Position numbers and translations under genes: made by a program. The notes beneath the pieces were generated by a model that saw nothing but the letters and a program-made list of their open reading frames with translations, was not told where the DNA came from and did not search any database. From Candidatus Portnoybacteria bacterium RBG_13_40_8 (lineage in GTDB: Bacteria; Patescibacteriota; Minisyncoccia; RBG-13-40-8-A): a stretch of DNA of 45,253 nt. The stretch covers positions 1-45,253 of the forward strand of contig MHMT01000012.1 in assembly GCA_001819435.1 (NCBI GenBank). Direction: 5' to 3'. Below are positions 12,001 to 31,097 of this stretch, in pieces. Position 1 is the stretch's first letter; every line of letters begins with the position of its first letter.

Positions 12001-14990
12001 GTATAGGAGATACGGTTCCTGGATACAAACTCTCTGTCGACGGCACTGCCTCAATCTCCGGAGGATTATATTTGAGCGACGCATATAATAATGTACTTCT
12101 CGGACCCGCTAATATTGGCACTACCTCCACTGGTTCTTATAATATATTGATAGGAAATTCTGTTGGCTCAAATGCGGATGATTTAGATTATTCTACTTTT
12201 ATCGGGTCATCCTGGACTGGTCAATATGCGGGAAATTCTGATCAAAGTGTTTTTATGGGATATTTTACGGGCACCTATGCTTCAGATTCTGGTGGTAGTG
12301 TTTTTATGGGAACCAGCGCAGGCGCGTATGCTGAAGATTCTGATTGGAGTATCTTTATTGGTAATAATGCAGGCCTTTTTGCTTCAATGTCGACATACAG
12401 CACAATATTGGGTGCTGGCGCAGGTGTATGGATTGGTGATGCTGATTACAATACTTATCTCGGCGGTTATGCGGGTCAATACGCTGGCGAAGGCGATAAT
12501 AATGTGTATGTGGGATACGGAGCAGGCCAAAATGCTTCCGGCAGCGCCAATGTATTTTTAGGTTATCTGGCTGGTCGCGATGAAACCGGTTCCAACCTTT
12601 TGTATATCGAAAACTCTGCTGGCACCACACCTCTAATCTACGGCGATTTCTCATCAAATTATGTTTCCATTTCCGATAATCTATATATCTCCAACAATCT
12701 CTTTGTTGACGGCACAGCTTCCATATCCATAGCTTCAATATCTCAATATGCAATTTTTGGTGATATTGCTACTCCATCATCACCAGGTCTGGGCATGGTC
12801 TTCCATGATACCGGAGATAATGAATTATTATATTATGACGGCACTGGATGGCAGAATCTGGCAAGTCCCAGCGCCAGCGGATTATCCGGCGGTTTACAAA
12901 ATTATATCGGTATCTGGAATGGCACGGACAGCATGACTTACGATACTGAATTCTACTGGGATACTACCAACAACTGGCTGGGTATCGGCGATATTACTCC
13001 TGATGCAATGTTGGACGTCAATGGCGGCGCTTCAATATCAGAGGATTTCTCGGTTGGCGATTCCTTATTCTATGTCAATGTTGGCTCTTCTTCCGTGGAT
13101 ATAGGTGCTGCCGGTTCAGATGTATATATCGGTACAGAAGGAGATACCTCCACAATCAATTTGATTATTGAAGGCACTGGTAATCTTGGTATCGGCGATA
13201 CTACTCCCGACTGGAGATTATCGGTTGACGGCACGGCTTCTGTTTCCGGCAATGCATATTTCCCGAATACGCCCAACGTTACTGATTTAAGAACCGATGG
13301 CAGCGGTATGTTATATGACGCTTCTGACATGCGCTTAAAGAAAAATATTACTGATATCGATAATGCTTTAAGTAAATTGATGTCTTTGCGCGGCGTGACC
13401 TACAATTGGAAAACCCTGGAAGAAGGCAATGACTACATTACTATGGACGGTACGATAATGCATATGGGCTTTATTGCTCAGGAAGTAGCGAGCAGTTCTG
13501 TCTCCGAATTAGCCTATAGCCATACAAGATCTGGCCAGGAAATCTGGGCAGTGAGAGAAGGTGAAATGACGGCTTTACTAGTTGAAGCAATCAAAGAAAT
13601 GAACAGTATTATTGATTTATCCGATGCCCCGATTGATTCTGCTTCTTTAACCATCAGTCAATTGGGTAATGTCGGCATCGGCGGTACTGCCTCTATCTCC
13701 GGAGATTTGTATGTTGGTGGTTTAGCCACCGAATCAGCCGCGTTTGTCTATGTTGATACCGAGGGCAAATTACACGCCGGCGATGCTTATCAGGATTTGG
13801 CCGAATTTATGCCTTTGGCTTCTCAAAGTTTTGAAGCCGGTGATGTAATCACTTCCCGACTGGCCACTGACGAGGAAAAAGCCAATGGATTGACTACTGA
13901 ACCGTTTATCGGAGTAAAATCATCTACTTCTTATGACCAGAATTTATTGGGAGTAGTTTCTTATTCCGATATTCCGGCTTTGGGAACCAAACTGAACAAT
14001 AACTACTTGCCGATTTCTTTGGCTGGTCGTGTGCCGGTTAAAGTTTCCACTCAAAATGGAGCAATTAAGGAAGGCGATTATCTTACATCTTCTACTATTC
14101 CGGGTGTAGCCATGAAAGCCACTAATGCCGGTCCTGTTATCGGCAAAGCGCTTGAACCATATGCAAATCCTGACCCAGCAGTTGTGGGCAGAATTTTAAT
14201 GTTCGTGAATTCAACCTGGTACGGTGGCAAATCATCAGAAATTGTGATTAATCCTGACGGAACGGTTGATGACAAAGTGACAGTTGAATCCGGAGATTTC
14301 TTTGGGAACCTGACTGCGAGCTTAAGACAATTGGGCGTGGATATTGCCGATGGTGTGATTAAAGCCACTAAACTGGTAGTTAATGAAGTTAAAACCAAAG
14401 TATTAAGAATCTCGGTTGAAAAAGATAAAGATGCTACTGTTGGCACAGCCATAATCCCAGCCCAGCAGATTGAATTCAGGGTAGAAAATAGTTTGGTGGA
14501 GGCCAATTCCAAGATATTTATAACCTTTACCGCTGATACAGGTGGCAGAACCTGGCACATTTCGGAAAAAGTTGCCGGAAACGGGTTTACAATTCGCTTA
14601 AGCGATGTCACGCCCGAAGAATTGAGTTTTGATTATTGGATAGTTCTTGTCGAAGGACAAGATCGCGGATCTACGCAGATTGACCCTGCTTCGCAGGATA
14701 CGCAGACAGACGCAGAGCCCTACTGTGGGGATGGGATACTTTATGCGGGTGAGGAATGTGATGACGGAAATTTGATTGATGGAGATGGATGCGATGCAAC
14801 TTGCATGACAGAAGTTGTGAGTGAAGAGCCATCTTCACCTTCTGGCGAAAATGAAGAGCAAGCGCCGGTTGAGGAAACTACGCCACCAATTGAAGAAATC
14901 ACACCGCCAGTGGAGGAAATTGTCGCACCGACAGAAGAAACAACTCCGTCATCTGAACAAGGCACATCGACAGAAGAAACAGTAATTTAA
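3..14990 (+). CDS. Giant repetitive surface/adhesin-like protein, 5'-truncated; six arrays of 17-aa G-x-x-A-G-x-Y-A repeats, VGIG(T/D)xxP repeats, Peptidase_S74-like chaperone motif, Cys-rich repeat, acidic Pro/Glu tail
   Basis: Frame is open from nt 3, so the true start is probably upstream of the window; SDMRLKKNITDI at 13323 matches the S74 'SDxRLK' motif; GRVPVKVS...GDYLTSS..PGVAMKA block; CGDG...EECDDGN...GDGCDATC at ~14724-14805 resembles the Myxococcus Cys-rich repeat. Confidence 0.85.
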   Translation, partial: EVGTGLFYVNTGSSSVQFGGTSTTSFVGPVSISEDLDVGSGQLFVDNSSGFVGIGSVSLAADAILTVRQQADSQGIKIFGYDDGDTRYGHMYMDSNNDFYIRTDTTSTHIIFSAGGSNTLMMDGDGDFQVGQSSYMARLINSQSGGTPVFSFSSDEDTGIGQMGPAVADFDADTLSLRGGGIALMQLGEYGNLPFVGIGTAATTSYTFAVDGTASISDDFYVGDNLLTLDVSEASVSSTGKWKLTTTETTGEGFYIDASSVTTGNGLLIEVDGTAMTSGKALQITRDGASMFNIGEWGDIYAAGQFSGSYLTMTSTTASYFTGPLGIGTTTPSTELSIVGTASISEDLWASGAFQFGGGELEATQSYSRLGGNDTGHGLDNAYDLLISGMLEVDGMTYFDGGTTFGSTASVTSDFSVGDSLFYVNVGTQSYQFGGTGTASFAGDIDMEGDLNVGNNDLYIDSSTGYVGIGTGASMSAKFNVAGTSTDNAYFFYNNADVGDTTNGQSLYVYRRAAEGDEYLRMYVDDSAEAIIETSMANLKFNTGGATIENWGPVNIGTNWYGSGVNYFITQYGYITAASTQKYIQWQVSDTTDTFNLTRQDDYIVGFNIGMPTSISDNLDVDGIVSISDGLYVDTFTSISDDLSVASSGYTIGDDYGPTLYIDTVNDYVGIGTTAPTTKLYIRGTDPEITLYESATGAIMSIQQGQAFGIVGPESASDLSLQTGGGSKIYIQHSGSYVGIGTYYPSVELSILGTASISQDLWASGAFQFGGGEITATASYSRLGLNNTGHGLDNAYDLLISGMLEVDGMTYFDGGTTFGSTASITGDFSVGDSLFYVNVGTQSYQFGGTGTASFVGPVNISQDLNVSEGDLFVDDSTGYVGIGTTNPLKKLSVSGNISGTQFDDYEDSSYYINPSAGDVSILVAGNVGIGTKSPDSLLDVAGQIIASSSYFTGLTQLTHASVSDDLELMGVASISASSVLFRPETNSTTFLQMASAAFVAGDDYPIFNVDTQNGRVGIGTAAPDSKLTISGSGTQNLRIISTDYNDAGVILQRGTYGTDAYSDWFIYDSGGTLKLDSYQSSSQNTRMTILTTGEVGIGDTAPGYTLSVDGTASISDNFYFGNDMLWSNRTGDLMMSSSSWIFGGDETTNSFTFEGIASLSGYLDFGALATPSTGLAAGRVFRYEDDNSLWYYNGSDWLDLTETGAGATGIPGGSGNEFQYRINGTTFGGAASLVYGGATSILSSASWDISGTNWNLDAIASISGGLYLSDAYNNVLIGPSTVGTTSTGSYNIFMGDAAGTYADEVSYGTFIGQNAGQSAINADYSFFAGWNAGQYASNSSDSFMVGRTAGQYAEDSYNSIFIGNWAGRYASQSTYSVMIGEQVGDYADDVDYSVFLGTNTGQYAGNSDNSIFIGNSAGQYASESGYSVFTGVYAGQYAENSYNSIFAGNWAGRYASQSIYSIMIGEQVGDYADDVDNVVFLGRLAGQYAADADNSIFMGQEAGQHASESQYSVFMGRDAGQYAKDSQYSVFIGDWSGQYASGSSFTFMSGQSAGADAADADNSIFMGQDSGAYAGYLDESIFMGHLAGTYASESSYSYFIGGAAGQYASISNNSVMVGYGAGQYFGTDNSADGRVTFIGDNAGNSAIDSDYSVMIGPGAGQYASESGGSVFIGSQTGDYAQNSDDSVFIGDWTGRYASLSTETVLVGPYAGDYAGDVDYGVFMGTGAGGYAINSDNSTFVGPWAGQSASESVSSVFIGIGAGQYAEDSDNSVFMGNGTGSYASLSTGTTMIGGAAGYYTGDADYNTYLGGYAGQYAGEGDNNTYIGYQAGENASGSSNVFIGFDAGSDETGSNLLYIENSAGTTPLIYGDFTNNYVSISNDLYTAGNLYTNGTASISGALTVDGTATSSFAGTIHIFKAESGIEANEYSDDFIIEANGDAGMSILTPDSSAGFINFGSPGGDVGAFLEYSYNSDNFGIGTNETGGRLIFYTDYYIEAMRIDANGDVGIGDTDPTYKLSVDGTASISDNFYFGNDMLWSNRTGDLMMSSSSWIFGGDATTNSFTFEGIASLSGYLDWGAIATPSAYAGRMFYSEENNSMWVYSGGWLEWGGGGGGGADSDWTINVNDMYSAVSGNVGIGDSVPDYKLSVDGTASISGGLYLSDAYFNTLIGPAVGTTSTNSFNIFMGDSPGQYADSVEYANFIGFYAGQYGINSDYSVFMGYWAGRYASDSYSSVFIGDAPGAYAEDSDYSVFIGTVAGLYASLSRESIFIGPEAGRYAGNADYNVYLGSEAGTYAGEGDQNVYLGYQAGRNASGSYNVFLGNQAGFNETGNDKLYIENSSGATPLIYGDFSSNYVSISTNLFTDNFYTSYASISSYAEFGQAATPSAPATGQLFHDTDNLLYYYDGTAWLNLTSTSAGGTIDGIGTENYITLWDDSDSLTNSILFQSGTSEILVSGSATFDGTASFSGDTTIGNNLFFADISEASISVAGAIEATGMILGNNIKTDTDLANLYLGTGIGSTTTSSYNIFIGDFTGAEADGASGSTFIGRQAGRYAVNTDTAVFIGGYAGQYASESNYSTFLGYQAGRYAEFSNGSTFVGQYAGYIASQSPNSNLLGNYAGADADNIDEVVFNGYMAGRFAGDSGYSTFIGSHAGEYASDSIDATFIGYAAGQYAEDSDWATFVGYNAGQYASLTLGSVMLGPGAGQYVGNADYDVYLGDSAGRYAGEGVNNVYIGYRAGEYASGSGNVFIGFDAGSDETGSNLLYIDNSNITTPLIYGDFSSNYVSISNDLYTAGNLYINGTASISDDFYVGNDSLFFDLSADTFYSSSSWGIGGTGLAFNLDATASISGDLTVTGDDVLFQPYTNGTDSFIIASSGWASGDDYGPLFNVNTTAASISMNGDLAVFKDFNVASGAIQHDYSSGITYIDSLNMGALSFDTDAGVVSWVDMPVATTAASIIESYTAQLDGNPMITVYGLTDGSGGVTSLGVGIGDTAPSYMLSVDGTASISDNFYFGNDMLWSNKTGDLMMSSSSWIFGGDATTNSFTFEGIASLSGYLDFGALATPTTGLAAGRVFHYEDDNSLWYYNGSDWLDLTETGAGATGIPGGSGNEFQYRVDATTFGGAASLVYGSATSILSSASWDISGTNWNLDAIASISGGLYLSDAYYNTLIGPADVGTTSTGSYNIFMGYRAGQYADEVGSANFIGYQAGRYAINADSSVFIGINAGMYASDSEDGVILGQQAGMYAEDSDKSVFIGSNAGQYASLSLDSVMIGEEAGRYTGNADNNTYLGSFAGLYAGEGDNNVYVGYDAGMNASGSANVFLGYLAGRDETGSNLLYIENYYDGTAWLNLTSTSAGGTIDGIGTENYITLWDDTDSLTNSIIYQSGTSEILVSGSATFDGYASISGDLTVTGDDVLFRPLVDGADTFTISSSGFVAGDDYAIFSVDTQNIAVGIGTTAPNALLHLKSIAPQIMFTDSDDGGDEFTQYLNGGILLVGYNNTDSVYNIAIGSDNLVGIRDVTPDYGLEVVASSADGYLAVSSDDDEAKNANIFLIDENGYVGIGDTDPIYKLSVDGTASISGGLYLSDAYYNTLIGPTTVGTTSTGSYDIFMGDAAGQYADSVEYANFIGVEAGQYGINSDYSIFIGGLAGKFASDSRQSIFIGGQAVGLYAENSDDSIMIGGYGAGMYASLSSYSLMIGTDAGQYAGNADYNTYLGAHSGQYAGEGDNNVYLGFQAGQNASGSSNVFIGYDVGSDETGSNLLYIENSAGTTPLIYGDFSSNYVSISSSLFTDNFYTSYASISSYAEFGQAATPSAPATGQLFHDTDNLLYYYDGSAWLNLASTSAGGTIDGTGTENYITLWDDSDSLTNSILYQSGTSEILVSGSATFDGLVSLSDEFTVASGMDIGGGDLYVDAYDGKVGIGTIGPISKLEVENANTGDNLYGLYVDQNEPDAYAIHTYADGGWGLRVQSALNTGTSYLLDIENSDGSILAVTAEGNVGIGDTVPGYKLSVDGTASISGGLYLSDAYNNVLLGPANIGTTSTGSYNILIGNSVGSNADDLDYSTFIGSSWTGQYAGNSDQSVFMGYFTGTYASDSGGSVFMGTSAGAYAEDSDWSIFIGNNAGLFASMSTYSTILGAGAGVWIGDADYNTYLGGYAGQYAGEGDNNVYVGYGAGQNASGSANVFLGYLAGRDETGSNLLYIENSAGTTPLIYGDFSSNYVSISDNLYISNNLFVDGTASISIASISQYAIFGDIATPSSPGLGMVFHDTGDNELLYYDGTGWQNLASPSASGLSGGLQNYIGIWNGTDSMTYDTEFYWDTTNNWLGIGDITPDAMLDVNGGASISEDFSVGDSLFYVNVGSSSVDIGAAGSDVYIGTEGDTSTINLIIEGTGNLGIGDTTPDWRLSVDGTASVSGNAYFPNTPNVTDLRTDGSGMLYDASDMRLKKNITDIDNALSKLMSLRGVTYNWKTLEEGNDYITMDGTIMHMGFIAQEVASSSVSELAYSHTRSGQEIWAVREGEMTALLVEAIKEMNSIIDLSDAPIDSASLTISQLGNVGIGGTASISGDLYVGGLATESAAFVYVDTEGKLHAGDAYQDLAEFMPLASQSFEAGDVITSRLATDEEKANGLTTEPFIGVKSSTSYDQNLLGVVSYSDIPALGTKLNNNYLPISLAGRVPVKVSTQNGAIKEGDYLTSSTIPGVAMKATNAGPVIGKALEPYANPDPAVVGRILMFVNSTWYGGKSSEIVINPDGTVDDKVTVESGDFFGNLTASLRQLGVDIADGVIKATKLVVNEVKTKVLRISVEKDKDATVGTAIIPAQQIEFRVENSLVEANSKIFITFTADTGGRTWHISEKVAGNGFTIRLSDVTPEELSFDYWIVLVEGQDRGSTQIDPASQDTQTDAEPYCGDGILYAGEECDDGNLIDGDGCDATCMTEVVSEEPSSPSGENEEQAPVEETTPPIEEITPPVEEIVAPTEETTPSSEQGTSTEETVI
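14664..14716 (+). repeat. ACGCAGAT-decamer element with central GC hairpin, in frame in the giant gene (copy 1)
   Basis: CGCGGAT-CTACGCAGATTGA-C-CCTGC TTC GCAGG-ATACGCAGAC-AGACGCAGA; matches copies at 19746 and 25562. Confidence 0.8.
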
Positions 14991-15142
14991 TTCTCAATTT
15001 CGAATTCTGAATTTCGAATCAATTTTAAATGACTTAAATTCGAAACCCCAAGCAGTACAGCAGAGCTGACTACGGGGCAGGCAGTTTCAAAATTCAGAAA
15101 TTCTGTAATTCAATCAAAATTCAAAATTAAAAATTCAAAATT
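14989..15142. repeat. Heptamer palindromic element E1 with a GC-rich hairpin as central cargo
   Basis: Left arm AATTCTC AATTTCG AATTCTG AATTTCG AATC AATTTTA AATGACTT AAATTCG; centre 15046-15084; right arm ends CAAAATT CAAAATT AAAAATT CAAAATT. Confidence 0.85.
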
Positions 15143-15148
15143 ATAACC

Positions 15149-15763
15149 GTGTCTAAAAAACTAATCCTCATTATTATCATAATCATTGTGCTTTCTGGCG
15201 CGATATATTTCGTTTTCTTAAATAAAAATTCCCTTCAAAGCGGGCAAGTATCCAATGGTATCAATGAATATCAACAAGTATCCGGCAACGAACAAACTTT
15301 CAAGATTACTCCAAGCGATAATAAAGAAAACAGTATTTATACCGACTCGCAATATAGATTTTCCTTTGAATATCCCAAAGATTTTACAGTAACAAAATTT
15401 CAGGAAGGGGAGGACGGTGATACAATATTGGTTCAGTATCGTGAGCAAAGCGAGCAAGTATCAACAAGTATCAATAAGTATCCGGATGGTAGTAGTTTCC
15501 AGATTTTTATTTCCCCTTTTGACGAGCCGGGACCATTGACCAAAGAAAGAATATTACAGGATTTGCCTGATTTAATCATAAAAAATCCCGAGCAAAGAGT
15601 TTTGAAAAACGGCGCCGTGGCTCTTGTCTTTTTCAGCGAAGAGCAGTCACTCGGCGAAACCAGAGAAATATGGTTTATTCATAATAATCACCTTTACCAG
15701 ATTACAACGAATAAGGAATTGGATGGATTGGTGGCAAAAATTCTTGAAACCTGGCGGTTTTAG
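15149..15763 (+). CDS. Membrane-anchored PsbP-like protein
   Basis: N-terminal hydrophobic anchor; YTDSQYRFSFEYPKDF start and 'ILETWRF' end resemble PsbP-related proteins. Confidence 0.6.
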   Translation: MSKKLILIIIIIIVLSGAIYFVFLNKNSLQSGQVSNGINEYQQVSGNEQTFKITPSDNKENSIYTDSQYRFSFEYPKDFTVTKFQEGEDGDTILVQYREQSEQVSTSINKYPDGSSFQIFISPFDEPGPLTKERILQDLPDLIIKNPEQRVLKNGAVALVFFSEEQSLGETREIWFIHNNHLYQITTNKELDGLVAKILETWRF

Positions 15764-15765
15764 TG

Positions 15766-16243
15766 AAATTCGAATTTAGAATTTTGAATTTCGAATCAAT
15801 TTAAAATGATTTAATTATTCAAACTTTATGACCATGAATAAAAATAATTACGATTTAGAAGAAAGAACCGCGAAATTCGGAGAAGATATTATTGAATTTT
15901 GTAAATCTATAAATCAAGACGCTATTACTAAACCGATTATTAGCCAATTGATTCGTTCGGGAACGAGCGTAGGAGCTAATTATATGGAAGCTAACGCCGC
16001 TGCTTCTAAAAAGGATTTCAAAAACAAAATATTTATTTGCAAGAAAGAATCTCAAGAGACCAAGCACTGGTTAAGAATGATGGCGAAATCTAATCCGGAA
16101 AAAACAGAAGAAATACGTAAGTTATGGAAAGAATGCCAGGAATTAACTCTAATTTTCGGAAAAATCGTTTCGTCATTAAGAAAGTAATTTGAAATTAGGT
16201 TATTCGAATTTGAATCAAAATTCAAAATTAAAAATTCAAAATT
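15766..16243. mobile_element. Putative gene-carrying element E2: heptamer left arm (15766-15824), 4HB gene, right arm (16188-16243)
   Basis: Arms are imperfect inverted repeats of each other and closely match the arms of E1, E3 and E4; mobility is inferred, not shown. Confidence 0.55.
15828..16187 (+). CDS. Four helix bundle protein (23S rRNA IVP / Avd-like family)
   Basis: DLEERT..F, QLIRSGTSVGANYMEA, SKKDF..K..I..KE..ET.HWL motifs. Confidence 0.9.
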   Translation: MTMNKNNYDLEERTAKFGEDIIEFCKSINQDAITKPIISQLIRSGTSVGANYMEANAAASKKDFKNKIFICKKESQETKHWLRMMAKSNPEKTEEIRKLWKECQELTLIFGKIVSSLRK

Positions 16244-16266
16244 AAGCCCAGCATTTATTAAGCCGA

Positions 16267-16389
16267 AAATTCGAATTTCGAATTTCGAATCAATTTTAAA
16301 TGAATTAATTTCAAATTAAAAATTAGTCGTGTTTCAAAATTAAAAAATTAGATAATTCAATCAAAATTCAAAATTAAAAATTAGAAATT
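16267..16389. repeat. Heptamer palindromic element E3 (empty)
   Basis: AAATTCG AATTTCG AATTTCG AATC AATTTTA AATGAATT AATTTCA, short TAAAAATTAGTCGT centre, right arm as in E1. Confidence 0.85.
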
Positions 16390-16399
16390 AAAGCCAAGT

Positions 16400-18499
16400 A
16401 TGAAAAAGTTTTTATATTTCATCATATTCACGTTTGGACTGCTAATAGCCCAGAATGCTTTTGCTAGCATAATTTTACGTCCCGTTTTTCATACTGGTCT
16501 TGTTGGCTATTGGTCTTTTCAGGAAGGCGCGGGAAATAATGTTTATGACAAAAGCGGAAAAGGAAATACCGGCACCTGGAACGGAACAGGAACCTCTCAC
16601 TGGGCAGACGGAAAAATCGGCAAAGGGGGAAGCTTTAACGGGACAGATGATTATGTTGCACTTTCTAATTCTTCGGATTATAAACCCACAAGCAGAGTAA
16701 CTATTTCAGCTTGGTTTAAAGCAGATGACTGGGATTCGAGTTTTGTAATTACAGGCATTAGTGTTGCCAACATGCATTTTTATATTGCTGAGGGCGGTGG
16801 TTATGAACATCCCACCATATATCTTACCTTTGCTGGCGCAGGCGCTCAGATGGCGCAATGGGCAAACCAAAGCTTAAATGTCGGACAGTGGTATCATATT
16901 GCCGGAGTATATGATGGTAATGATTTAATCCTTTATTTTGACGGTGTAGCCAGGAAAGTAACCAATATTGGCGTTGATACGATTAGCCAGCCAGCATCAA
17001 CTATGCTTATAGGTAGATTAGGAGCTGATTATTCCAATGGATTGATCGACGAAGTACGGATTTATAACCGCGCCTTGGATGAAAGCGAAATTTCCCGGCT
17101 TTATAAATTATCCCAGCCGAAAATATCAACTGTCGCCATGAATAATGGCTTGGTCGGCTACTGGGATTTTCAGGAAGGCGCGGGAAATAATGTTTATGAC
17201 AAAAGCGGTTATGACAATGACGGCATCTGGAACGGCACTGGTTCTCACTGGGCAGACGGCAAAATCGGCAAAGGGGGAAGTTTTAATGGGACCGATGATT
17301 ATGTTTATGTCACTGAACCTACAGGAGAATTAAACCTTGTAAATAACTTTACTTTAAGCGCCTGGATTAAGCCGGAAGATTCTTCGGGCACCAGGGCTAT
17401 TGTGGGCAGGTATTACCAATACGTCTTGTGGATTGAAAATGATAACACGCTTTCCGCCATAATTCGTAACTCGTCCGGCGATTATGAATATCCTACCAGC
17501 GGAACCGCCGTAACCGAAGGTGTATGGAGCCACGTTGCTATAACTTTCTCCGATAGCGTGGTCACTTTTTATATTAATGGAGTAAAAATCATAACAGACT
17601 CTATTGCTACTTCACAGATATTTTCAGACACGAATTATTATATGCATTTCGGAATTTATAGCAGTCTAGTCAGTCTGCGTTTTCCCGGAATCATCGATGA
17701 AATTAGGGCTTATAACCGTGTCTTAAGCGAAGGTGAGATGAGCCGGCTTTATAAATTATCCCAGCCGAAAATCAATGCTTCGCAAAACAACCAACTCACC
17801 AATGGCTTGGTCGGTCTTTGGTCATTTAATGGTTCTGATATTGATGGTAATGAGGCCTATGACCGCAGTGGTCAAGGAAATACCGGCACCATTGTGGGTG
17901 CAACAAAAACTATCGGCAAAGTGGGGCAAGCCATGGAATTCAACGGCACCAGCGATTATATCGCAATTACCGACGATTCGATTTTCGATTTAAACGCCAG
18001 CAACAGCTATTCCTGGTCATTCTGGATAAAACCGCAAAATTTAACCAATCCTAATACTATATGGTCTCAGGACCTCGGAATTGACGATGACACATATGTT
18101 CTTATCTATGCGGGCAGTTTTGATGTTGAGCGGTGGGGACCCGTAACCAATGGCATAGGAGCAGGATGGGTAAATCAAGGCAGTTCGGGCGGTGAACAAT
18201 TAATAGTTGAGACCAATAATAATGTTCTTACCTTAAATACTTGGCATCATGTTGTGATTACCTATACTTATTCGACAAACGCCCTAACCAGATTTAAGAT
18301 TTATGTTGATGGCGCTGATAAGACAACGGGGGCAGAGCAGGGAGGAACATCTATTGAAAATATTAGTCCTGCATATACTAGAATTGGTTCGAATCAACAA
18401 TACGGCGAATATTTCGACGGTATGATTGATGAAGCACGTTTCTACAACCGCGCACTGACAGCGCAAGAGGTGTTGAGATTATACAATATGGGACACTAA
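16400..18499 (+). CDS. Secreted protein with three LamG/concanavalin A-like domains
   Basis: Signal peptide ending AFA; three GLVG(Y/L)W.F ... W.H ... IDE.R.YNR.L units; the starts of domains 1 and 2 are near-identical in DNA (~16496-16655 vs ~17146-17302). Confidence 0.9.
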   Translation: MKKFLYFIIFTFGLLIAQNAFASIILRPVFHTGLVGYWSFQEGAGNNVYDKSGKGNTGTWNGTGTSHWADGKIGKGGSFNGTDDYVALSNSSDYKPTSRVTISAWFKADDWDSSFVITGISVANMHFYIAEGGGYEHPTIYLTFAGAGAQMAQWANQSLNVGQWYHIAGVYDGNDLILYFDGVARKVTNIGVDTISQPASTMLIGRLGADYSNGLIDEVRIYNRALDESEISRLYKLSQPKISTVAMNNGLVGYWDFQEGAGNNVYDKSGYDNDGIWNGTGSHWADGKIGKGGSFNGTDDYVYVTEPTGELNLVNNFTLSAWIKPEDSSGTRAIVGRYYQYVLWIENDNTLSAIIRNSSGDYEYPTSGTAVTEGVWSHVAITFSDSVVTFYINGVKIITDSIATSQIFSDTNYYMHFGIYSSLVSLRFPGIIDEIRAYNRVLSEGEMSRLYKLSQPKINASQNNQLTNGLVGLWSFNGSDIDGNEAYDRSGQGNTGTIVGATKTIGKVGQAMEFNGTSDYIAITDDSIFDLNASNSYSWSFWIKPQNLTNPNTIWSQDLGIDDDTYVLIYAGSFDVERWGPVTNGIGAGWVNQGSSGGEQLIVETNNNVLTLNTWHHVVITYTYSTNALTRFKIYVDGADKTTGAEQGGTSIENISPAYTRIGSNQQYGEYFDGMIDEARFYNRALTAQEVLRLYNMGH

Positions 18500-18629
18500 A
18501 ATTTCGAATTCTGAATTTCGAATTTCGAACCAAATTCGAATGAATTAATTTCAAATTAAAAAATAGTCGTGTTTCAAAATTAAGTAATTCTGTAATTCAT
18601 TCAAAATTAAAAATTTAAAATTCAAAATT
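18500..18629. repeat. Heptamer palindromic element E4 (empty)
   Basis: Nearly the same arms and TAAAAAATAGTCGT centre as E3. Confidence 0.85.
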
Positions 18630-18634
18630 AAACT

Positions 18635-23277: not shown

Positions 23278-23325
23278 AAAACAAGTAGTTTTTGCTGTTT
23301 GTTTTTTTATTTTGACTTTTTGTTA

Positions 23326-23334
23326 TGGTAGAAT
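23326..23334 (+). promoter_or_regulatory. Putative extended -10 promoter
   Basis: TG-G-TAGAAT, 6 nt before ATG 23341. Confidence 0.5.
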
Positions 23335-23340
23335 GTGTTT

Positions 23341-24737: not shown

Positions 24738-24799
24738 AAATTCAATCATTTGAAATTGATTTGGAATAATTTGAGCTTTGAGATAATTTGAAATAATTT
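24677..24799. repeat. Palindromic element E6 overlapping the ligase 3' end
   Basis: (AAATCCA AACTATTTCA)x2 AAAC AAATCCA AAATCCA, with a complementary-type right arm TTTGGAATAATTTG...GAGATAATTTGAAATAATTTT. Confidence 0.75.
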
Positions 24800-26155
24800 A
24801 TGCAATATATTTGCGATTTTCACATTCACTCCAAATACTCCCGCGCTACTTCTAAAGAAACAAATATTGAGAATCTGAACAAATGGGCGCGCATCAAGGG
24901 CGTTGATGTTTTGGGAAGCGGAGATTTTACCCATCCACTTTGGCTGAAAGAATTGAAAGAAAAGCTGATTCCAGCCGAAAAAGGGCTTTTCCGTTATAAA
25001 GATAAAAAAATAAAAAATAATCATAATGGATTTTTGATTAACGGAAACAATCATCAGCCGGAGACGAGATTTATTCTGACTACCGAGATTTCCAGTATTT
25101 ATTCCAAGGGAGGGAAAACCAGAAAAATTCACAATATAATTTTTGCTCCTAATTTTGAGGCAGTGGAAAAAATTAACACCCATCTGGGATGGATTGGTAA
25201 TTTAAAATCCGATGGTCGGCCGATTCTGGGATTGGATGCCAAAGAATTGGCAAAAATTGTTCTGAATATTTCCGAAGATTGCTTGATTATTCCTGCCCAT
25301 GCTTGGACGCCCTGGTTTTCTATTTTCGGTTCATTTTCCGGATTTGACTCGATTGAAGAGTGCTTCGAAGAATATACAAAATATATTTATGCTATTGAAA
25401 CCGGATTATCAAGCGATCCGGAAATGAATTGGCAGTTAAGTAAATTGGATAATATTACCTTAATTTCTAATTCCGATGCTCACAGTCCCGCTAAAATTGG
25501 CCGCGAGGCCAATATTTTTGAAGGCGAGAAAATAGATTATAATTTAATTGCTAACGCAATTAAACGCAGATCCACGCAGATTGAACCCCGACAAGTCGGG
25601 GATACGCAGATAAACGCAGAAAAAGAGTTACGATTGGTTAAAACCCTTGAGTTTTTTCCCGAAGAGGGAAAATATCATTGGGATGGCCATCGGAATTGCG
25701 GAATTGTTTTCAGCCCCGATGAATCGTTTAAATACAATAATGTTTGCCCGCGCTGCGGAAAACCATTAACCATCGGAGTAATGAACCGAGTCCGCCAGCT
25801 GGCTGACCGGCAAATAGGCGAAAAACCAATAAATGCCATTCCTTTTCAAAGACTGATTCCTCTGGAAGAGATAATTGCCGATGTAATTGGCATTGGTGTA
25901 GGCACTAAAGGAGTTAATGAACATTATAAAAACTTGATTAAGGTTTTTGGCAACGAATTCAAGATTTTATTGGAAGTCAGAAAAGAACAAATTGCCTCTG
26001 TCAGTTTGCCGGAGATTGCCGAAGGCATAGACAAGGTAAGACAGGGCAAAATTTCAGTATCCCCCGGTTATGATGGAGAATATGGGAAAATCAGTATTTT
26101 TGGCGATAACGAAGAAAGACCAAAAACCATCGGCAGCCAAGAAACCCTTTTTTGA
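24800..26155 (+). CDS. Endonuclease Q family / PHP-domain protein (related to the N-terminal domain of some UvrD proteins)
   Basis: DFHIHSKYSRATS, AHAWTPWFS, ETGLSSD, SNSDAHS, GKYHWDGHR.C, CPRCG, PGYDGEYG. Confidence 0.85.
   Translation: MQYICDFHIHSKYSRATSKETNIENLNKWARIKGVDVLGSGDFTHPLWLKELKEKLIPAEKGLFRYKDKKIKNNHNGFLINGNNHQPETRFILTTEISSIYSKGGKTRKIHNIIFAPNFEAVEKINTHLGWIGNLKSDGRPILGLDAKELAKIVLNISEDCLIIPAHAWTPWFSIFGSFSGFDSIEECFEEYTKYIYAIETGLSSDPEMNWQLSKLDNITLISNSDAHSPAKIGREANIFEGEKIDYNLIANAIKRRSTQIEPRQVGDTQINAEKELRLVKTLEFFPEEGKYHWDGHRNCGIVFSPDESFKYNNVCPRCGKPLTIGVMNRVRQLADRQIGEKPINAIPFQRLIPLEEIIADVIGIGVGTKGVNEHYKNLIKVFGNEFKILLEVRKEQIASVSLPEIAEGIDKVRQGKISVSPGYDGEYGKISIFGDNEERPKTIGSQETLF
25562..25620 (+). 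repeat. ACGCAGAT-decamer element (copy 3), in frame
   Basis: AAACGCAGAT CCACGCAGATTGA-A-CCCCGAC AA GTCGGGG-ATACGCAGAT AAACGCAGA. Confidence 0.85.
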
Positions 26156-26158
26156 ATT

Positions 26159-26248
26159 AATCTCTAATCTCAAAATCCTAATTTCTAAACAATCTCAAAT
26201 ATCAAAATTCAAAAATTTTAGAGATTAGAGATTAGAAATTAGAGATTT
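26159..26248. repeat. Heptamer palindromic element E7 (AATCTCT type)
   Basis: AATCTCT AATCTCA AAATCCT AATTTCT AAAC AATCTCA...; right arm (AGAGATT)n. Confidence 0.8.
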
Positions 26249-26258
26249 AAATTATTTT

Positions 26259-26939
26259 ATGGAAATTGTTAGCACGAATTCCGTTTTAAATCTTCTATAT
26301 ACTCACCGTTATATTTTTTCTTTTTTGGGCGCTTTTTTTGAGGGCACTTTTATTATGATTTTGACCGGCGTTCTTTACAAGCTCGGATATTTTAAATTTT
26401 GGGCATTATTCTCTGTGTTGTTGGGTGGGTATTTTCTTAATGGAGTAATATGGTATTTGATCGGAAGATATGGAGGTAATCATGTTTTAGAAAAATGGGG
26501 CAAGCGCCTTAATTTTACCAAAAATTTAGTGGAGAAATTGGAAGAATATTTTAAAAACCACAGCCTAAGAACGCTTTTTATAACTCGAATTACCTGGGGT
26601 TTTAGCATGCTTAGTTTTATGATTGCCGGCAGTTTTAAAATGAAATTTAAAAAATTTGCAGCCGTTAATTTGGCGGCTAGCGTTGTTTGGGTTTTGGGTT
26701 TAGTCGGTATTGGTTATGTTTTCGGGGCAAGCCTTAAGGGCCTTTCAATCGTCACCAAGAGCATCAGAATTGGGCTGACTATTGCCCTTTTTGCGATTAT
26801 AGTTTTTGTTTCTTTCCTGATTGTTTATTGGCTAAGATGGTTTGCCAGAACAAAATTTATCCAAGATTTAAGCGAGCACAAGGAATCACAATTTTTACGC
26901 TGGGTAGGAGAAAAAATCAGTAATTTCGGCAAAAAATGA
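26259..26939 (+). CDS. DedA (VTT domain) family membrane protein
   Basis: TM pattern with Y.IGRYGG, LFITR and AG...M.FKKF...N motifs. Confidence 0.8.
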   Translation: MEIVSTNSVLNLLYTHRYIFSFLGAFFEGTFIMILTGVLYKLGYFKFWALFSVLLGGYFLNGVIWYLIGRYGGNHVLEKWGKRLNFTKNLVEKLEEYFKNHSLRTLFITRITWGFSMLSFMIAGSFKMKFKKFAAVNLAASVVWVLGLVGIGYVFGASLKGLSIVTKSIRIGLTIALFAIIVFVSFLIVYWLRWFARTKFIQDLSEHKESQFLRWVGEKISNFGKK

Positions 26940-26945
26940 TATAAT
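26937..26945 (+). promoter_or_regulatory. Putative extended -10 promoter
   Basis: TG-A-TATAAT, 6 nt before ATG 26952. Confidence 0.6.
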
Positions 26946-26951
26946 AAAAAA

Positions 26952-27575
26952 ATGGGCAGATTCTCTATCAATAAAATAATTCGAATTCTCATCGGTGCGG
27001 ATTTTATCTTTCTTTCCGCTCTGGGTTTGATTACCCCGATTTTCGCTGTTTTTATCACCGGACAAATTAAAGGCGGAACAGTGGAGGTAGTTGGATTTGC
27101 CGCAGGTATTTATTGGATACTCAAATCTTTTCTGCAGTTGCCCATCGGTAAATTTTTGGACAAAAGAAAAGGAGAGAGAGACGATTTATGTTTTCTGGTA
27201 ATTGGTTATCTTATAGTGGCTTGCGTTCAGTTCGGTTATATTTTAAGTTCCTTGCCTTGGCATGTTTATCTTTTAGAAGGTATTTATGCCTTTGGTATGG
27301 CAATGGCTATTCCTGCTTGGCCTGCTATATTTACTCGTCATATCGACAAAGGCAAGGAAGCTTTTGAGTGGAGTCTAGAGAGCACTGCTTTAAGCTTTGG
27401 CAGCGGAGTTACCGGAGCGCTGGGCGGAATTTTGGTTGCCAAATTTGGTTTTAATTTAGTGTTTCTAGTCGCTGGTTTTATAGCCATGTTTGGAGGATTT
27501 CTTCCCTTGTTTATTGTTAAAGATGTTGAAAAGAAGGGAGATCATCATTTGAGGTTTTGGAGAAAAAGATTATGA
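26952..27575 (+). CDS. Half-size (about 6 TM) MFS transporter
   Basis: P.GKFLDKRKG motif-A-like loop; six hydrophobic segments. Confidence 0.75.
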   Translation: MGRFSINKIIRILIGADFIFLSALGLITPIFAVFITGQIKGGTVEVVGFAAGIYWILKSFLQLPIGKFLDKRKGERDDLCFLVIGYLIVACVQFGYILSSLPWHVYLLEGIYAFGMAMAIPAWPAIFTRHIDKGKEAFEWSLESTALSFGSGVTGALGGILVAKFGFNLVFLVAGFIAMFGGFLPLFIVKDVEKKGDHHLRFWRKRL

Positions 27576-27778
27576 TAAATGATAAAATAACCAAAAATAT
27601 GACCATTGATGAGGTTTTGAAAAAATATCCGCAAACAGCGGAGATTTTTCTAAAATACGGATTTCATTGTTTGGGATGCGCCGCAGCAACCTTTGAGACG
27701 CTTGAACAAGGAGCAACGGCCCATGGGATTACCGCAGAAGAGTTGTTGGAAGATTTGAACAAGACAATAGGGGCTTGA
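27572..27778 (+). CDS. DUF1858 / hybrid-cluster-associated redox disulfide domain protein
   Basis: ITKNMTI.EV..KYP...G.HCLGC..A.FETLEQGA..HG; ATG 27572 overlaps the upstream TGA. Confidence 0.85.
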   Translation: MINDKITKNMTIDEVLKKYPQTAEIFLKYGFHCLGCAAATFETLEQGATAHGITAEELLEDLNKTIGA

Positions 27779-27783
27779 TCTTT

Positions 27784-27952
27784 GGCAAACCAACGAATCA
27801 TTTCTCCAGCACGAAGTCGCCGAATATTTGTTATTTAATGTATTTGCACAGGCGTTTCTGTTTCTCGCTAAGTCAATACGATTTAGCGATTTTTATTTTT
27901 ATCTAAGTCGGACTTAGCTGCGAAACGCTTCCGAAATGATTATTGGTTTGCC
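27784..27952. other. Multi-branched inverted-repeat structure (candidate ncRNA or MITE-like element)
   Basis: GGCAAACCAA..AATCATTTC pairs with GAAATGATT.TTGGTTTGCC; inner GCGTTTC/GAAACGC stem and two CTAAGTC hairpins. Confidence 0.6.
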
Positions 27953-27982
27953 CGAATGATAAATATGGTAAAATAGAAATAT

Positions 27983-29719
27983 ATGGATAATAAAGAGATA
28001 GCGAAAATTTTATATGAAATTTCGGAATATTTGTCTATGGAAGATGTGCCGTTTAAGCCAAGGGCTTATGAAAGAGCAGCCATGGCTATTGAAGAATTGG
28101 AGAATAGAGTAGAAGATATTTATAAAAAAGAAGGACTGGAGGGATTAATAAATATACCGACTGTCGGCAAGGGCATTGCCGAGAGGATTAAAGAACTGAT
28201 AAGGACCGGTAAAATCAGATATTACGAACAATTAAAGAAGAAAACCCCGGTTAAAGTTGATGAACTTACGGCTGTGGAAGGGGTCGGTCCAAAGATAATC
28301 AAGAGATTATACAAAGAAATTGGCGTAAAGAATTTAATCGATTTGGAAAAAGCGGCTATGGCCGGAAAAATCAGAAAACTGGAAGGCTTTGGTCAAAAAA
28401 GCGAGGAGAATATTTTAAGAGGAATAAATTTTCTCAAGAGTAGCGGTGGTCGTTTTGTTTTGGGGTTTATAATGCCGGAAGTAAGAGAGATTGAAAAAAG
28501 AATTGGTGATTTTCCTGGCGTTAAAAAAGCAATTATTGCCGGTTCAATCAGAAGAATGAAAGAAACAATCGGTGATGGCGATTTATTGGTTACCGTTTCT
28601 TCTCCGCGGGCAGGACAAAAGATAATGGAGATTTTCGTGAATATGCCTGAAGTAATGCACGTTTATAGTCAAGGACCGACAAAATCTTCGGTAAGACTGA
28701 AAAATGGTATGGATTTTGACCTTCGGGTTGTGCCGGAAGAAAGTTTTGGCGCAGCTTTGCAGTATTTTACCGGCAGCAAAGACCATAATATTGAATTAAG
28801 AAAAATTGCCATTAAAAAAGGATTAAAACTTAATGAATATGGAGTGTTTCGGGGTAAAAAAATGATTGTCGGCAAAAACGAAGAGGAGGTTTATAAAATT
28901 TTGGGCTTAAAATGGATGGAGCCGGAATTGAGAGAGAATGCAGGAGAAATCGAAGCTGCGCAAAATAATAGATTGCCGAAAATAATCGGCTATAACGACC
29001 TCCAAGGGGACTTGCAAATTCAGACAAATTGGACCGATGGCTCAAATTCCATTGAGGATTATGTTGAAGAAGCAATAAAATTGGGCTTGGAATATATTCT
29101 GATTACCGACCACACCAAAAGCCTGGCAATGACTCATGGATTGGATGAAAGAGGGTTGGCGAGACAGGGAAGGGAAATAGATAAAATAAATTCAAAGCTC
29201 AAAGCTCAAAACTCAAAACTTAGGGTGTTGAAGGGAGCCGAGGTTAATATTTTAAAGGATGGTCGACTGGATATCAAAGACGATACTTTACATAAATTAG
29301 ACGTAGTGGCTATTGCTGTTCATTCGGGATTTAAAATGTCCAAACGCGATATTACCGAAAGAATTATTAAAGCGATGAAAAATCCTCATACTGATATTTT
29401 GTTTCATCCCACGGGCAGGTTAATCAATCAAAGACCACCATATGAAGTGGATGTGGAAAAAATAATCAGAGTAGCCAAAGAAACTAAAACAGTCTTGGAA
29501 GTTAACGCTTATCCGAATAGGTTGGATTTAAAAGACGAATACGCGCGCATGGCTAAGAATATGGGTGTGAAATTATCCATTGACTCGGACGCTCACCACG
29601 TTTCGCATCTTCATTTTTTGGAATTCGGCATTGCTCAGGCTCGTAGAGGATGGGTGGAGAAAAAGGATGTGATAAATGCCTGGCCAGTAGAAAAAATGTT
29701 AAAAATGCTGAAACATTAA
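27983..29719 (+). CDS. polX: DNA polymerase/3'-5' exonuclease PolX with PHP domain
   Basis: AGSIRR.KETIGD.D, ALQYFTGSK.HN, ITDH, HPTGR, SDAH motifs. Confidence 0.93.
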   Translation: MDNKEIAKILYEISEYLSMEDVPFKPRAYERAAMAIEELENRVEDIYKKEGLEGLINIPTVGKGIAERIKELIRTGKIRYYEQLKKKTPVKVDELTAVEGVGPKIIKRLYKEIGVKNLIDLEKAAMAGKIRKLEGFGQKSEENILRGINFLKSSGGRFVLGFIMPEVREIEKRIGDFPGVKKAIIAGSIRRMKETIGDGDLLVTVSSPRAGQKIMEIFVNMPEVMHVYSQGPTKSSVRLKNGMDFDLRVVPEESFGAALQYFTGSKDHNIELRKIAIKKGLKLNEYGVFRGKKMIVGKNEEEVYKILGLKWMEPELRENAGEIEAAQNNRLPKIIGYNDLQGDLQIQTNWTDGSNSIEDYVEEAIKLGLEYILITDHTKSLAMTHGLDERGLARQGREIDKINSKLKAQNSKLRVLKGAEVNILKDGRLDIKDDTLHKLDVVAIAVHSGFKMSKRDITERIIKAMKNPHTDILFHPTGRLINQRPPYEVDVEKIIRVAKETKTVLEVNAYPNRLDLKDEYARMAKNMGVKLSIDSDAHHVSHLHFLEFGIAQARRGWVEKKDVINAWPVEKMLKMLKH

Positions 29720-29842
29720 AATCTCTAATCTCGAAATTCCAATCTCTAAACAATCTCAAATACCAAAAAACCAAAACACTTTTGAATTTTGAAATTTGAG
29801 ATTTGAACTTATTTAGAAATTAGAGATTAGGATTTAGAAATT
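29720..29842. repeat. Heptamer palindromic element E8 (AATCTCT type)
   Basis: Left arm nearly identical to E7; complete complementary right arm ending TTAGAAATTAGAGATTAGGATTTAGAAATT. Confidence 0.85.
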
Positions 29843-30254
29843 GAAAAATTTTTTGAATAAAAAATTTTATATATTTTGGCTGCCAGTTATATTATGGGCG
29901 GGAATTATATTCTGGCTTTCTTCAATTCCTGATTTGGAAAGCGGATTAAAGCAGGATTTTATTTTGCGAAAAATTGCCCATATTTTGGAATTTGCCATTC
30001 TGACATTTTTACTAATCCGAGCAATAAATCAAGAAAATTTATCTATCAAGAAAACAATAATTTTCTCTTTGATTATTGCTCTTTTTTATGCTCTGTCTGA
30101 TGAATATCATCAGACTTTTATCGGAGGTCGCCAAGGGGCATTGAGAGACGCCGGGATTGATAGTATCGGTATTTTATTGACTGGTTTAGTGTGGTATATT
30201 AAAAAGAGGAACCCTGTACCGCAAGAGGTGCAGGGCGGGGGTCGACAAAATTAA
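29841..30254 (+). CDS. VanZ family membrane protein
   Basis: RKIAH..EF..L, YA.SDEYHQ.F..GR.....D...D. Confidence 0.85.
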   Translation: MKNFLNKKFYIFWLPVILWAGIIFWLSSIPDLESGLKQDFILRKIAHILEFAILTFLLIRAINQENLSIKKTIIFSLIIALFYALSDEYHQTFIGGRQGALRDAGIDSIGILLTGLVWYIKKRNPVPQEVQGGGRQN

Positions 30255-30279
30255 TAACTAAATTTAATTTAATTTGATT

Positions 30280-30633
30280 ATGTTTTATAATTGTTGTCAT
30301 TTTGGTTTTTTGGCAGTTGTTTTGATTGTTTTAGGCGCCTTGGCTCTTTTGACCAACATGGGTTGGATAAATTCGAGTATTTGGCAATGGTGGCCGATTT
30401 TAATTGTTGGCGCGGGAATTTATCTTTTGATTATTCAGAAAAGAAGGAAAAAAATGACCATTCCCCGCGTTTTGGAAAGAATAGCCAGCGACGAAAAAGT
30501 TCAGGAAAAGCTTTCGAAAATCATCAATACCGTTGATGAAGTTGTGGATAAAAAACTGGATGAATGGCATAAGGAGGTAAGCCACAAAAAACCAACGAAA
30601 GATGAAGATATTGGCGGAGAACAAGAGAGCTAA
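30280..30633 (+). CDS. Small membrane protein, DUF5668/LiaF-like N-terminus
   Basis: LIVLG...LL.N.G......W.WWP.LIV..G pattern; start codon uncertain (30274 or 30280). Confidence 0.6.
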   Translation: MFYNCCHFGFLAVVLIVLGALALLTNMGWINSSIWQWWPILIVGAGIYLLIIQKRRKKMTIPRVLERIASDEKVQEKLSKIINTVDEVVDKKLDEWHKEVSHKKPTKDEDIGGEQES

Positions 30634-31045
30634 ATTCGATTACGAATTACTGGAAACCTACGAAGCCGGTTTGGTTCTTCGGGGATTTGAGGTGAAAGCA
30701 ATAAAAACCGGCCATGTTAATTTATTGGGCTCTTATGTCGTAGGTAGGGAGAGCGAATTTTATTTAATAAATGCTTTTATTCCGTCTTATCAGCCGTCAA
30801 ATACTCCGGAAGATTACGACCCCTATAGAAGCAGAAAACTGTTATTAAAAAAAAACGAGATTAATTCTTTAATCGGGAAAGGCAAGACAAAAGGATTGAC
30901 ATTAATTCCAATAAAGATATATACTAAAAAATCCAGGATAAAACTGGAATTTGCCGTCGGAAAAGGCAAGAGAAAGATTGATAAGAGGGAGATAATAAAA
31001 AAGCGCGACATGGAACGAGAGGCTGGACGTCGTTTTAAAAATTAG
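30602..31045 (+). CDS. smpB: SsrA-binding protein SmpB
   Basis: N.RA.FDY...ETYEAGLVL.G.EVKAI, R.RKLLL.K.EI, GKGK...DKRE. Confidence 0.96.
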   Translation: MKILAENKRAKFDYELLETYEAGLVLRGFEVKAIKTGHVNLLGSYVVGRESEFYLINAFIPSYQPSNTPEDYDPYRSRKLLLKKNEINSLIGKGKTKGLTLIPIKIYTKKSRIKLEFAVGKGKRKIDKREIIKKRDMEREAGRRFKN

Positions 31046-31097
31046 AATTTTGAATTTAGAATTTGTTTAGAAATTAGAAATTAGAAATTAGAAATTT
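31039..31097. repeat. Solo right arm of the heptamer element (E9)
   Basis: GAATTTT GAATTTA GAATTT GTTT (AGAAATT)4, similar to the E8 right arm. Confidence 0.75.

Follow-up and report, generated by a model that had tools for sequence, protein, structure and literature searches.

Elements of the window

Why do gene junctions in one ultra-small genome hold palindromes that differ in sequence and share an internal layout? The question is raised by a stretch of Candidatus Portnoybacteria bacterium RBG_13_40_8 (G000 hereafter), a member of the candidate phyla radiation (CPR, Patescibacteria) whose genome comprises 690 kb in 33 contigs and is 100% complete by markers. The window analysed here is a complete 45-kb contig of this genome (45,253 nucleotides, nt). 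Its + strand carries every long open reading frame (ORF) between 3 and 44288, in a co-directional gene array, and AT-rich elements built of 7-nt words occupy nine gene junctions between 14989 and 31604. A preliminary description had noted a common pattern of outer units, a 4-nt spacer, inner units and a mirrored arm, and had ascribed it to selection on a structure or on the binding pattern of a multimeric protein. We consider it probable that the palindromic heptamer elements constitute a single class of small inserts with the build of the intervening sequences (IVS) of rRNA genes. Judging from the sequences, their shared layout is best read as descent from gene-bearing cassettes, in which a gene of the PF05635 family lies between inverted heptamer arrays. 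The copies are insertions at junctions that are empty in relatives, and their families are common to several CPR lineages. Gene-bearing and gene-less forms have common ends, and the length of the arms is fixed. Function and mobility of the elements we infer.

The elements (E1 to E8) and their associated genes are as follows.

14989-15147, + strand: E1, gene-less, AATTTCG family; left array, AATC, inner segment, nested GC-rich hairpin (~15046-15082), AATC, right array (AAAATTM)x4
15766-15827, + strand: E2, the left arm of the complete cassette; four heptamers, AATC, leader to the ATG
15828-16187, + strand: cassette gene; 119-aa four-helix-bundle protein, PF05635 (23S_rRNA_IVP)
16188-16247, + strand: right arm of the complete cassette (first part of E3); AATC, then (AAAATTM)x4
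16266-16394, + strand: E3b, gene-less copy of the AATTTCG family; both ends align to the cassette ends
18499-18634, + strand: E4, gene-less copy of the AATTTCG family; break AACC
23101-23275, + strand: E5, AATT[NN]YCT family; outer units, AATC, inner AAATCCC units, mirrored right arm
24676-24799, + strand: E6, hairpin of 17-, 10- and 7-nt words
26156-26250, + strand: E7, AATCTCT family, short form without right inner units
29720-29842, + strand: E8, full element of the AATCTCT family; four outer units, AAAC, inner units, centre, mirror
31034-31097, - strand: half element of the AATCTCT family, immediately upstream of the gene for transfer-messenger RNA (tmRNA, 31117-31478)
31477-31604 and 31605-31952, + strand: a different heptamer palindrome, immediately behind the tmRNA 3' end, and a second PF05635 gene

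All elements, including the half element, were located where the preliminary description had placed them; E3 as delimited from it (16188-16394) comprises the right arm of the cassette together with E3b. The common anatomy that it had proposed holds in outline and fails in several details. E2 has no arm of its own, its partner lying at 16188-16247 across a gene; E7 lacks right inner units; and the supposed 9-mers of E5 are heptamers carrying a 2-nt insert (AATT[NN]YCT). The 4-nt break (AATC, AACC or AAAC) is confirmed: of nine phase shifts between adjacent arrays in G000, six have an offset of 4, as have four of nine in loci of relatives, which had been collected for other purposes, the cases being partly homologous and hence not independent. 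The ORF upstream of E6 (23703-24737) terminates within that element. The tmRNA gene is the sole Rfam match in the window.

PF05635 cassettes and gene-less elements with the same ends

The complete cassette at 15766-16247 consists of a PF05635 gene between (AATTTNG)x4-AATC and AATC-(AAAATTM)x4. Its gene matches the family model with an E-value of 2.6e-16 and 60.2 bits (cut-off 33.8), and among the 667 G000 genes scored its flanks rank first as inverted repeats. Both ends of the gene-less E1, E3b and E4 can be aligned to those of the cassette over the repeats and some 25 nt of non-repetitive sequence, at mean column identities of 78% (left) and 84% (right).

Altogether G000 encodes four PF05635 genes. 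The one on contig C10 has an AAATCC(T) array on one side, and its right end can be aligned to E7, to E8 and to the half element (31034-31097). For the E5 type, a PF05635 gene was found between arms of this type in a relative (G007, contig C9), with its ATG inside the inner word AATGACC; the same word is retained in gene-less E5-type copies from four genera.

In other genomes of the class, 14 of the 28 PF05635 loci that were scored have inverted-repeat flanks at least four standard deviations above shuffles, composed of short tandem words that differ from locus to locus, against a background of 13 genes at that score among the 667 of G000. Across 61 genomes of the class the array load correlates with the number of PF05635 genes (Spearman 0.53). 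The family is present in 25 of 30 array-rich and 12 of 31 array-poor genomes, and all seven genomes without any array are also without a PF05635 gene.

Insertion at gene junctions

The syntenic region was compared in five genomes of the same family, one from the same genus (G001) and four from other genera (G003, G006, G007 and G010). E6, E7 and E8 are whole-element insertions at junctions that are empty in these relatives, whose genes overlap or lie 0-6 nt apart there. The E7 site corresponds to an intergenic gap of 5 nt in G001 and to overlapping genes in G003 and G010. At the E8 site, stop and start codons overlap in G001 (ATGA), G006 and G010, and G007 has directly adjoining genes; the gene downstream of E8 in G000 starts with a TTG at the end of the right arm. 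The junction occupied by E6 measures 1-3 nt in G003 and G010. Upstream of the gene for a 1488-aa protein, G000 has E4 and G001 has an E7/E8-like sequence.

The AATCTCT family across CPR genomes

The same elements were also found in metagenome-assembled genomes (MAGs) named Jorgensenbacteria, Yanofskybacteria and others. The 24-nt non-repetitive core of E7 and E8 has exact matches in 24 stretches from MAGs of other CPR members, one Jorgensenbacteria MAG contributing six. It was also encountered twice in a MAG labelled Nanoarchaeota (L068 and L072), for which mis-binning or transfer between CPR and DPANN could account. Viral contigs gave no exact match to this core. The core of the AATTTCG family has only three exact matches across genomes.

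The canonical E7/E8 element is 116 nt long and is composed of four outer heptamers, AAAC, about 26 nt of inner words and a mirror in which GTTT faces AAAC. The break is therefore a phase shift within the stem and not a loop. A short form without the right inner arm is represented by E7 and by two near-identical copies in another genome; on sequence grounds, this recurrence points to the copying of a variant.

From 28 core matches, seven were set aside (incomplete, without a right arm, or failed by the arm finder) and 21 remained. Sixteen of these were aligned, leaving out four copies with inserts in the centre (L053+, L054, L058 and L072) and one short form (L055). In all 16 copies both outer arms comprise exactly four units (28 nt) without unit indels, and the 24-nt core is exactly conserved; on these grounds the preliminary description was right to set simple microsatellite slippage aside.

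The same alignment gave no sign that pairing between the arms is maintained. Of the cells, 77.7% pair, compared with a mean of 78.9% when partners are shuffled among copies, and 498 of 500 shuffles reached or exceeded the observed value. The covariation score is 0.094 (0.111 when shuffled), and seven pairs change on both sides where 10.9 are expected. Several pairs are mismatched in 13 to 16 of the 16 copies, and C.A mismatches (68) are about as frequent as U.G pairs (61). Because the arms do not covary and some mismatches are nearly constant, the likeness of the arms stems from the family consensus and not from maintained pairing. Selection on a base-paired structure is therefore unsupported, and the preliminary description, which had offered it as one of two options, had itself named a lack of covariation between arms as a refuting outcome.

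Folding of single elements was scored as RNA against dinucleotide shuffles (z-scores for the + and - strands). Values are strongly negative for E5 (-6.2 and -7.3), E7 (-5.2 and -5.0) and E8 (-4.6 and -5.8) and moderate for E6 (-2.8 and -3.6). E1 scored -2.4 and -5.8, E4 scored -1.35 and -3.3, and E3b was no better than shuffles (+0.27 and -1.2). The roughly complementary mirror arm that had been described for all elements is thus strong in E5, E7 and E8, moderate in E6, and weak or absent in the AATTTCG family. A folding advantage of the minus strand, seen in the window elements E1, E3, E4 and E6-E8 and due to C.A versus G.U, was not upheld in the wider E7/E8 family: the 16 copies average -35.5 and -35.8 kcal/mol for the two strands, and the plus strand is the stabler one in seven.

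Heptamer arrays genome-wide

Strict tandem arrays in G000 number 34 at period 7, of which 19 are intergenic and 15 lie in ORFs; none was detected at periods 6 and 8-15, and none in locally shuffled sequence. Likewise, the pattern (AAWTNNN)x3+AAWT forms 57 clusters at period 7 as compared to 1-6 at periods 5, 6 and 8-11. The 16.6-kb stretch between 14989 and 31604 holds 11 of the 29 intergenic relaxed arrays of the genome.

In-frame arrays are located at 23657-23683, 29188-29220 and 42573-42605 of the window. Elsewhere in G000 they are found on contigs C4 (713-744, 1480-1511, 2734-2766, 4087-4120), C6 (17348-18511), C20 (1307-1343), C24 (5864-5895), C26 (10860-10892, 26871-26901), C30 (12578-12612) and C32 (19083-19130). 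Those within conserved genes encode peptides such as IQNSKFKIQNS. For instance, an M16-peptidase-like gene has an array in place of the native loop at equal length, and in a TsaD-like gene three loops hold arrays that differ by genome. The TsaD-like gene of G000 and G001 includes a complete gene-less AATTTCG-type element in frame, which by eye is about 93% identical between the two genomes with flanks at about 67%. In the array at C26 26871, the unit that would yield an in-frame TAA is changed.

Loss of mismatch repair was considered as a cause of the arrays. Of 61 genomes searched in the class, 60 gave no match to the MutS domain V family, and the lone genome that has it shows three array hits, a single case of anecdotal value. 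The array load ranges from 0 to 156 among genomes that all lack MutS. This candidate was rejected, since MutS is missing in array-rich and array-poor genomes alike; its loss may be permissive.

Contigs of a second sample carry identical copies of E7 and E8. Among four DNA runs compared, other runs showed one 7-nt difference at E5 and one 3-nt difference at E6, possibly from other copies or relatives; at arrays, the contigs of these runs mostly represent other copies or other organisms, and contigs end at arrays.

Proposed origin of the elements

In the reading that we favour, the full form would be a gene of about 120 aa for a four-helix-bundle PF05635 protein, set within two inverted arrays, each composed of four 7-nt words and 28 nt in length. 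The remaining elements would be gene-less or half copies of it, much like miniature elements beside their autonomous parents. The outer four words would then represent the terminal arms and the mirror the opposite end of the cassette, the 4-nt AAWC would mark the fixed junction between the 28-nt outer array and the gene leader, and the inner words would be a remnant of this leader and of the 5' end of the gene. Transcribed within the gene array, each copy may form a long imperfect stem, which by analogy with rRNA IVS could serve as a substrate of host RNase III. Spread would presumably require the cassette protein or host recombination. The arms would have been complementary at the origin of each family, their match not being kept by compensatory change.

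Several observations weigh against this origin. Only one of the nine elements in the range carries a gene, no gene-bearing counterpart of E6 was found, and pairing between arms is poor in the AATTTCG family. Of the four PF05635 genes in G000, two are not enclosed by a heptamer palindrome but come after one, at a tmRNA or tRNA 3' end, and half of the PF05635 loci scored in relatives (14 of 28) have no significant inverted flanks. The p-values of the correlation between arrays and genes are overstated because the 61 genomes are kin, and five genomes with at least 40 array hits gave no PF05635 match, some of these assemblies being fragmented. Heptamer arrays also occur singly and in frame within genes, for which cassette decay offers no obvious explanation. 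When filled and empty sites were compared by eye, no target-site duplication was readable at E6-E8. Finally, Y1_Tnp (PF01797; RAYT/IS200), RVT_1, TnpB-type, rve and DDE_Tnp_1 each gave no match in G000, the PF01797 search having been validated by matches in control genomes.

A further step, which we put forward tentatively and hold to be rather unlikely, is that IVS-type cassettes constitute a distinct and still active mobile element. A pentameric protein resembling Avd of diversity-generating retroelements (DGR) would read the heptamer words of its own ends, four per arm, and help the hairpin, in the form of RNA or single-stranded DNA, to be copied or inserted at gene junctions, in stable-RNA genes and in permissive protein loops; it would also move gene-less hairpins in trans. 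On this view, the surplus of heptanucleotide repeats long noted in many bacterial phyla would mostly be the debris of such elements and not a product of slippage. If the orphan hairpins are decayed or gene-less PF05635 cassettes, three puzzles would merge into one question: why 7-nt tandem repeats are in excess, how rRNA IVS arose and moved, and what function is served by the PF05635 four-helix-bundle proteins, to which the Avd protein of DGR is related. For ultra-small CPR genomes, the inserts have practical consequences: they separate genes that overlapped, take the place of stop and start codons, extend essential enzymes by extra peptides and interrupt short-read assemblies.

Comparison with known elements

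The closest counterparts are ORF-bearing rRNA IVS. In the parts of PMC4990558 drawn on here, the helix-45 IVS in the 23S rRNA of Coxiella burnetii is presented as a selfish element of 428-444 nt with a 28-bp terminal stem, cleaved within the stem by RNase III, and its S23p ORF of the PF05635 family is preceded by tandem heptamers; an old idea that IVS were once mobile elements, with the ORF serving mobility, is cited there as well, as are the IVS of Leptospira and other bacteria. The window elements share with such IVS a PF05635-family ORF in the loop of a hairpin, 28-bp terminal inverted repeats (here 4 x 7 nt) and tandem heptamers beside the ORF. The ORF itself is present in the cassette at 15766-16247; the gene-less E1, E3b and E4-E8 are joined to it by common ends, E6 being without a counterpart. 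A long stem is evident from the 28-nt arms in all 16 E7/E8-type copies and from z-scores of -4.6 to -7.3 in E5, E7 and E8, and is weak in the AATTTCG family. Unlike IVS, which interrupt helix 25 or 45 of 23S rRNA, these elements lie between protein genes, after the tmRNA gene or in frame within genes; because they are not located in rRNA, we regard them as akin to rRNA IVS but not as members of that class. Most copies here are also without an ORF, and the arms are whole arrays of heptamer words that differ by family. RNase III excision has been demonstrated for IVS, whereas here it would apply by analogy.

Terminal inverted repeats made of several tandem short words are known from eukaryotic foldback transposons and from multi-site ends such as those of Tn7. 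The likeness is one of design: no transposase was found here, and the elements are far smaller. Rickettsia palindromic elements, which Ogata et al. are said to have reported in 2000, reportedly lie in frame within conserved housekeeping genes. Compared by description only, they are alike in being in-frame palindromes and unlike in lineage, in heptamer build and in the link to a cassette gene.

The short tandemly repeated repetitive sequences (STRR) of cyanobacteria are heptanucleotide simple-sequence repeats (SSRs). Other heptamer repeats include GGGAATC in Xanthomonas and GGGGAYT in Nostoc (sections of PMC4692102) and TAACTGA in Beggiatoaceae (sections of PMC4679880). According to the same sections, they resemble the present arrays in having a 7-nt unit, in being mostly intergenic and near the end of the upstream ORF or before a start codon, in being sometimes paired as inverted repeats, and in being scattered over phyla, with horizontal spread suspected. 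In contrast, these sections treat the repeats as SSRs or regulator sites and make no link to PF05635, whereas here the number of copies per arm is fixed and the elements are defined (PMC4692102, PMC4679880). In the literature covered, which did not extend to subscription journals and supplements, no description was found of a cassette outside rRNA or of its link to orphan heptamer hairpins. The connection between the gene-less families of the window and PF05635 cassettes is new here.

Repetitive extragenic palindromes (REP) and the bacterial interspersed mosaic elements (BIME) built from them have a GTAG/CGTC head and an associated tyrosine transposase (RAYT). The G000 elements differ in lacking such a head in a genome without Y1_Tnp, in their arms of tandem heptamers, and in a four-helix-bundle gene in place of the tyrosine transposase. 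They are alike in being short extragenic palindromes at gene 3' ends with many copies and a mosaic grammar, as in enterobacteria and pseudomonads (compare PMC3733652).

Alternative explanations

Two alternatives would make the layout a matter of present function. The host could be selecting the elements as RNA hairpins that punctuate a long operon, whether by marking sites of intercistronic processing, by stabilising 3' ends or by terminating transcription, with the layout set by the needs of the RNA. Their positions, exactly where one gene stops and the next starts in a co-directional array, would suit this. In the E7/E8 family, 22 of 26 copies have an upstream gene in the same orientation; tandem contexts number 12 forward and three reverse, beside seven convergent and one divergent. 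The stem is long enough for RNase III, which is encoded in G000. Yet the same junctions are empty in a same-genus genome and in genomes from four further genera of this family, covariation between arms is absent and some mismatches are conserved, neither strand folds better, and copies occur in frame within genes. Nor do the elements look like terminators: a GC-rich stem with a U-run is absent at every one of them, and none coincides with any of the 27 terminator-like sites in 14900-31700, ordinary terminators existing elsewhere in the genome. We therefore judge such hairpins decidedly improbable as an explanation. Alternatively, the arrays could be DNA or RNA platforms for a multimeric protein that binds one heptamer per site and sets the layout. 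Arm sequences are conserved individually and their pairing is not, arm length is constant at four words, and the 7- and 9-nt words of E5-type arms are not mirrored between arms (in L085, 9,9,7,9 on the left and 9,9,9,7 on the right); conserved arm words and unmirrored 7- and 9-nt words are sooner expected of words bound by a protein than of a stem under selection. Among solved structures, the closest relatives of the second PF05635 protein (31605-31952) have five chains per entry, the Xanthomonas homologue is described in the consulted part of PMC4990558 as a homopentameric toroid, and the consulted part of PMC10053308 notes a resemblance of PF05635 to the DGR protein Avd. Against this, the words differ so widely among cassettes that each protein would need a specificity of its own, gene-less arrays persist in the five genomes without a PF05635 match, and no gene for a cold-shock-domain protein, the heptamer binder suggested in a section of PMC4679880, was found in G000. 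As the sole explanation, protein binding is in our view an attractive but unlikely possibility.

The other two alternatives concern how the arrays arose. They might be ordinary long SSRs, palindromes being made locally by chance or template switching and 7-nt units being favoured by polymerase slippage, the latter a hypothesis for bacteria at large by Mrazek et al. 2007 that is relayed in sections of PMC4692102 and PMC4679880. Period 7 is the sole enriched period, arrays are also solitary and within genes, and the near-general lack of MutS in the class would provide a permissive background. However, the arms keep their four units without unit indels in all 16 aligned copies, which come from different genomes, conserved non-repeat cores and junctions recur across loci and lineages, elements are present or absent as wholes at a site, and the array load varies from none to the maximum among genomes that all lack MutS. 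For the palindromic elements slippage is largely refuted, and we give it very little credence. Equally slight is the chance that they are REP/BIME-type elements or transposase-derived miniature inverted-repeat transposable elements, moved by RAYT or by the transposase of an insertion sequence (IS). Such an origin would suit small intergenic palindromes at gene ends with many copies, a mosaic layout and presence or absence among relatives. It is opposed by the absence of Y1_Tnp, TnpB-type, rve, DDE_Tnp_1 and RVT_1 matches from G000, by the lack of a target duplication readable by eye, by ends that match the PF05635 cassette and not an IS, and by an E7/E8 core without a match on viral contigs. 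Descent from PF05635 cassettes remains the reading that we prefer.

Neighbouring genes and other inserts

The window opens with an ORF of at least 4995 aa (3-14990) that is open at the contig start and contains 255-nt and 51-nt tandem repeats at ~4046-4597. The genes after it include those for a triple Laminin_G_3 protein and for the 1488-aa protein, which has no Pfam match. A promoter scan gave no signal (49 sites, 46.5 expected).

Several other small inserts accompany the heptamer elements. Short GC-rich hairpins are nested within the centres of several heptamer elements: E1 (~15046-15082), those of the relatives' TsaD loops, and L011, L072, L053, L054 and L058. Some are in frame within genes, and L054 and L058 hold one module in opposite orientations. 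This nested hairpin looks like a second type of small insert that targets heptamer elements.

A distinct heptamer palindrome follows tmRNA and tRNA 3' ends, at 31477-31604 of the window and, in the remainder of G000, at C17 ~450-600 and the start of that contig, C5 ~5120-5200 and C30 ~15960-16040. It has a 15-bp outer stem around one array and a complementary array outside the stem, which makes two alternative pairings possible, and in two cases it directly precedes a PF05635 gene.

The 204-nt spacer at 27779-27982 is a further insertion, with inverted ends and an ordinary terminator-like hairpin at 27865-27889. The same junction measures 6 nt in G001 and at most 1 nt in G006 and G010, and G007 has a different, unrelated 146-nt insert there. 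In addition, G000 has at least 12 intergenic copies of a ~140-nt repeat that ends in inverted repeats of 20 nt. These are located at C4 15137-15272, C10 11940-12077, C13 18416-18550, C15 2571-2707 and 11126-11263, C19 4981-5118, C20 17732-17865 and 29999-30132, and C32 21674-21801; copies with variant ends lie at C11 4051-4186, C19 17070-17205 and C30 14216-14354.

Finally, a junction that measures 20 nt in G000 (30254/30274) is filled in G007 (locus L020; C42, ~4410-4770) by a small ORF with inverted CCCCCACCAAT-type ends on either side and a heptamer array after it. We take this ORF to be a candidate GIY-YIG-type nuclease, its motif having been recognised by eye. Inverted ends akin to those of L020 are found in G000 at C14 5143, C20 12451, C19 1690 and C32 23696.

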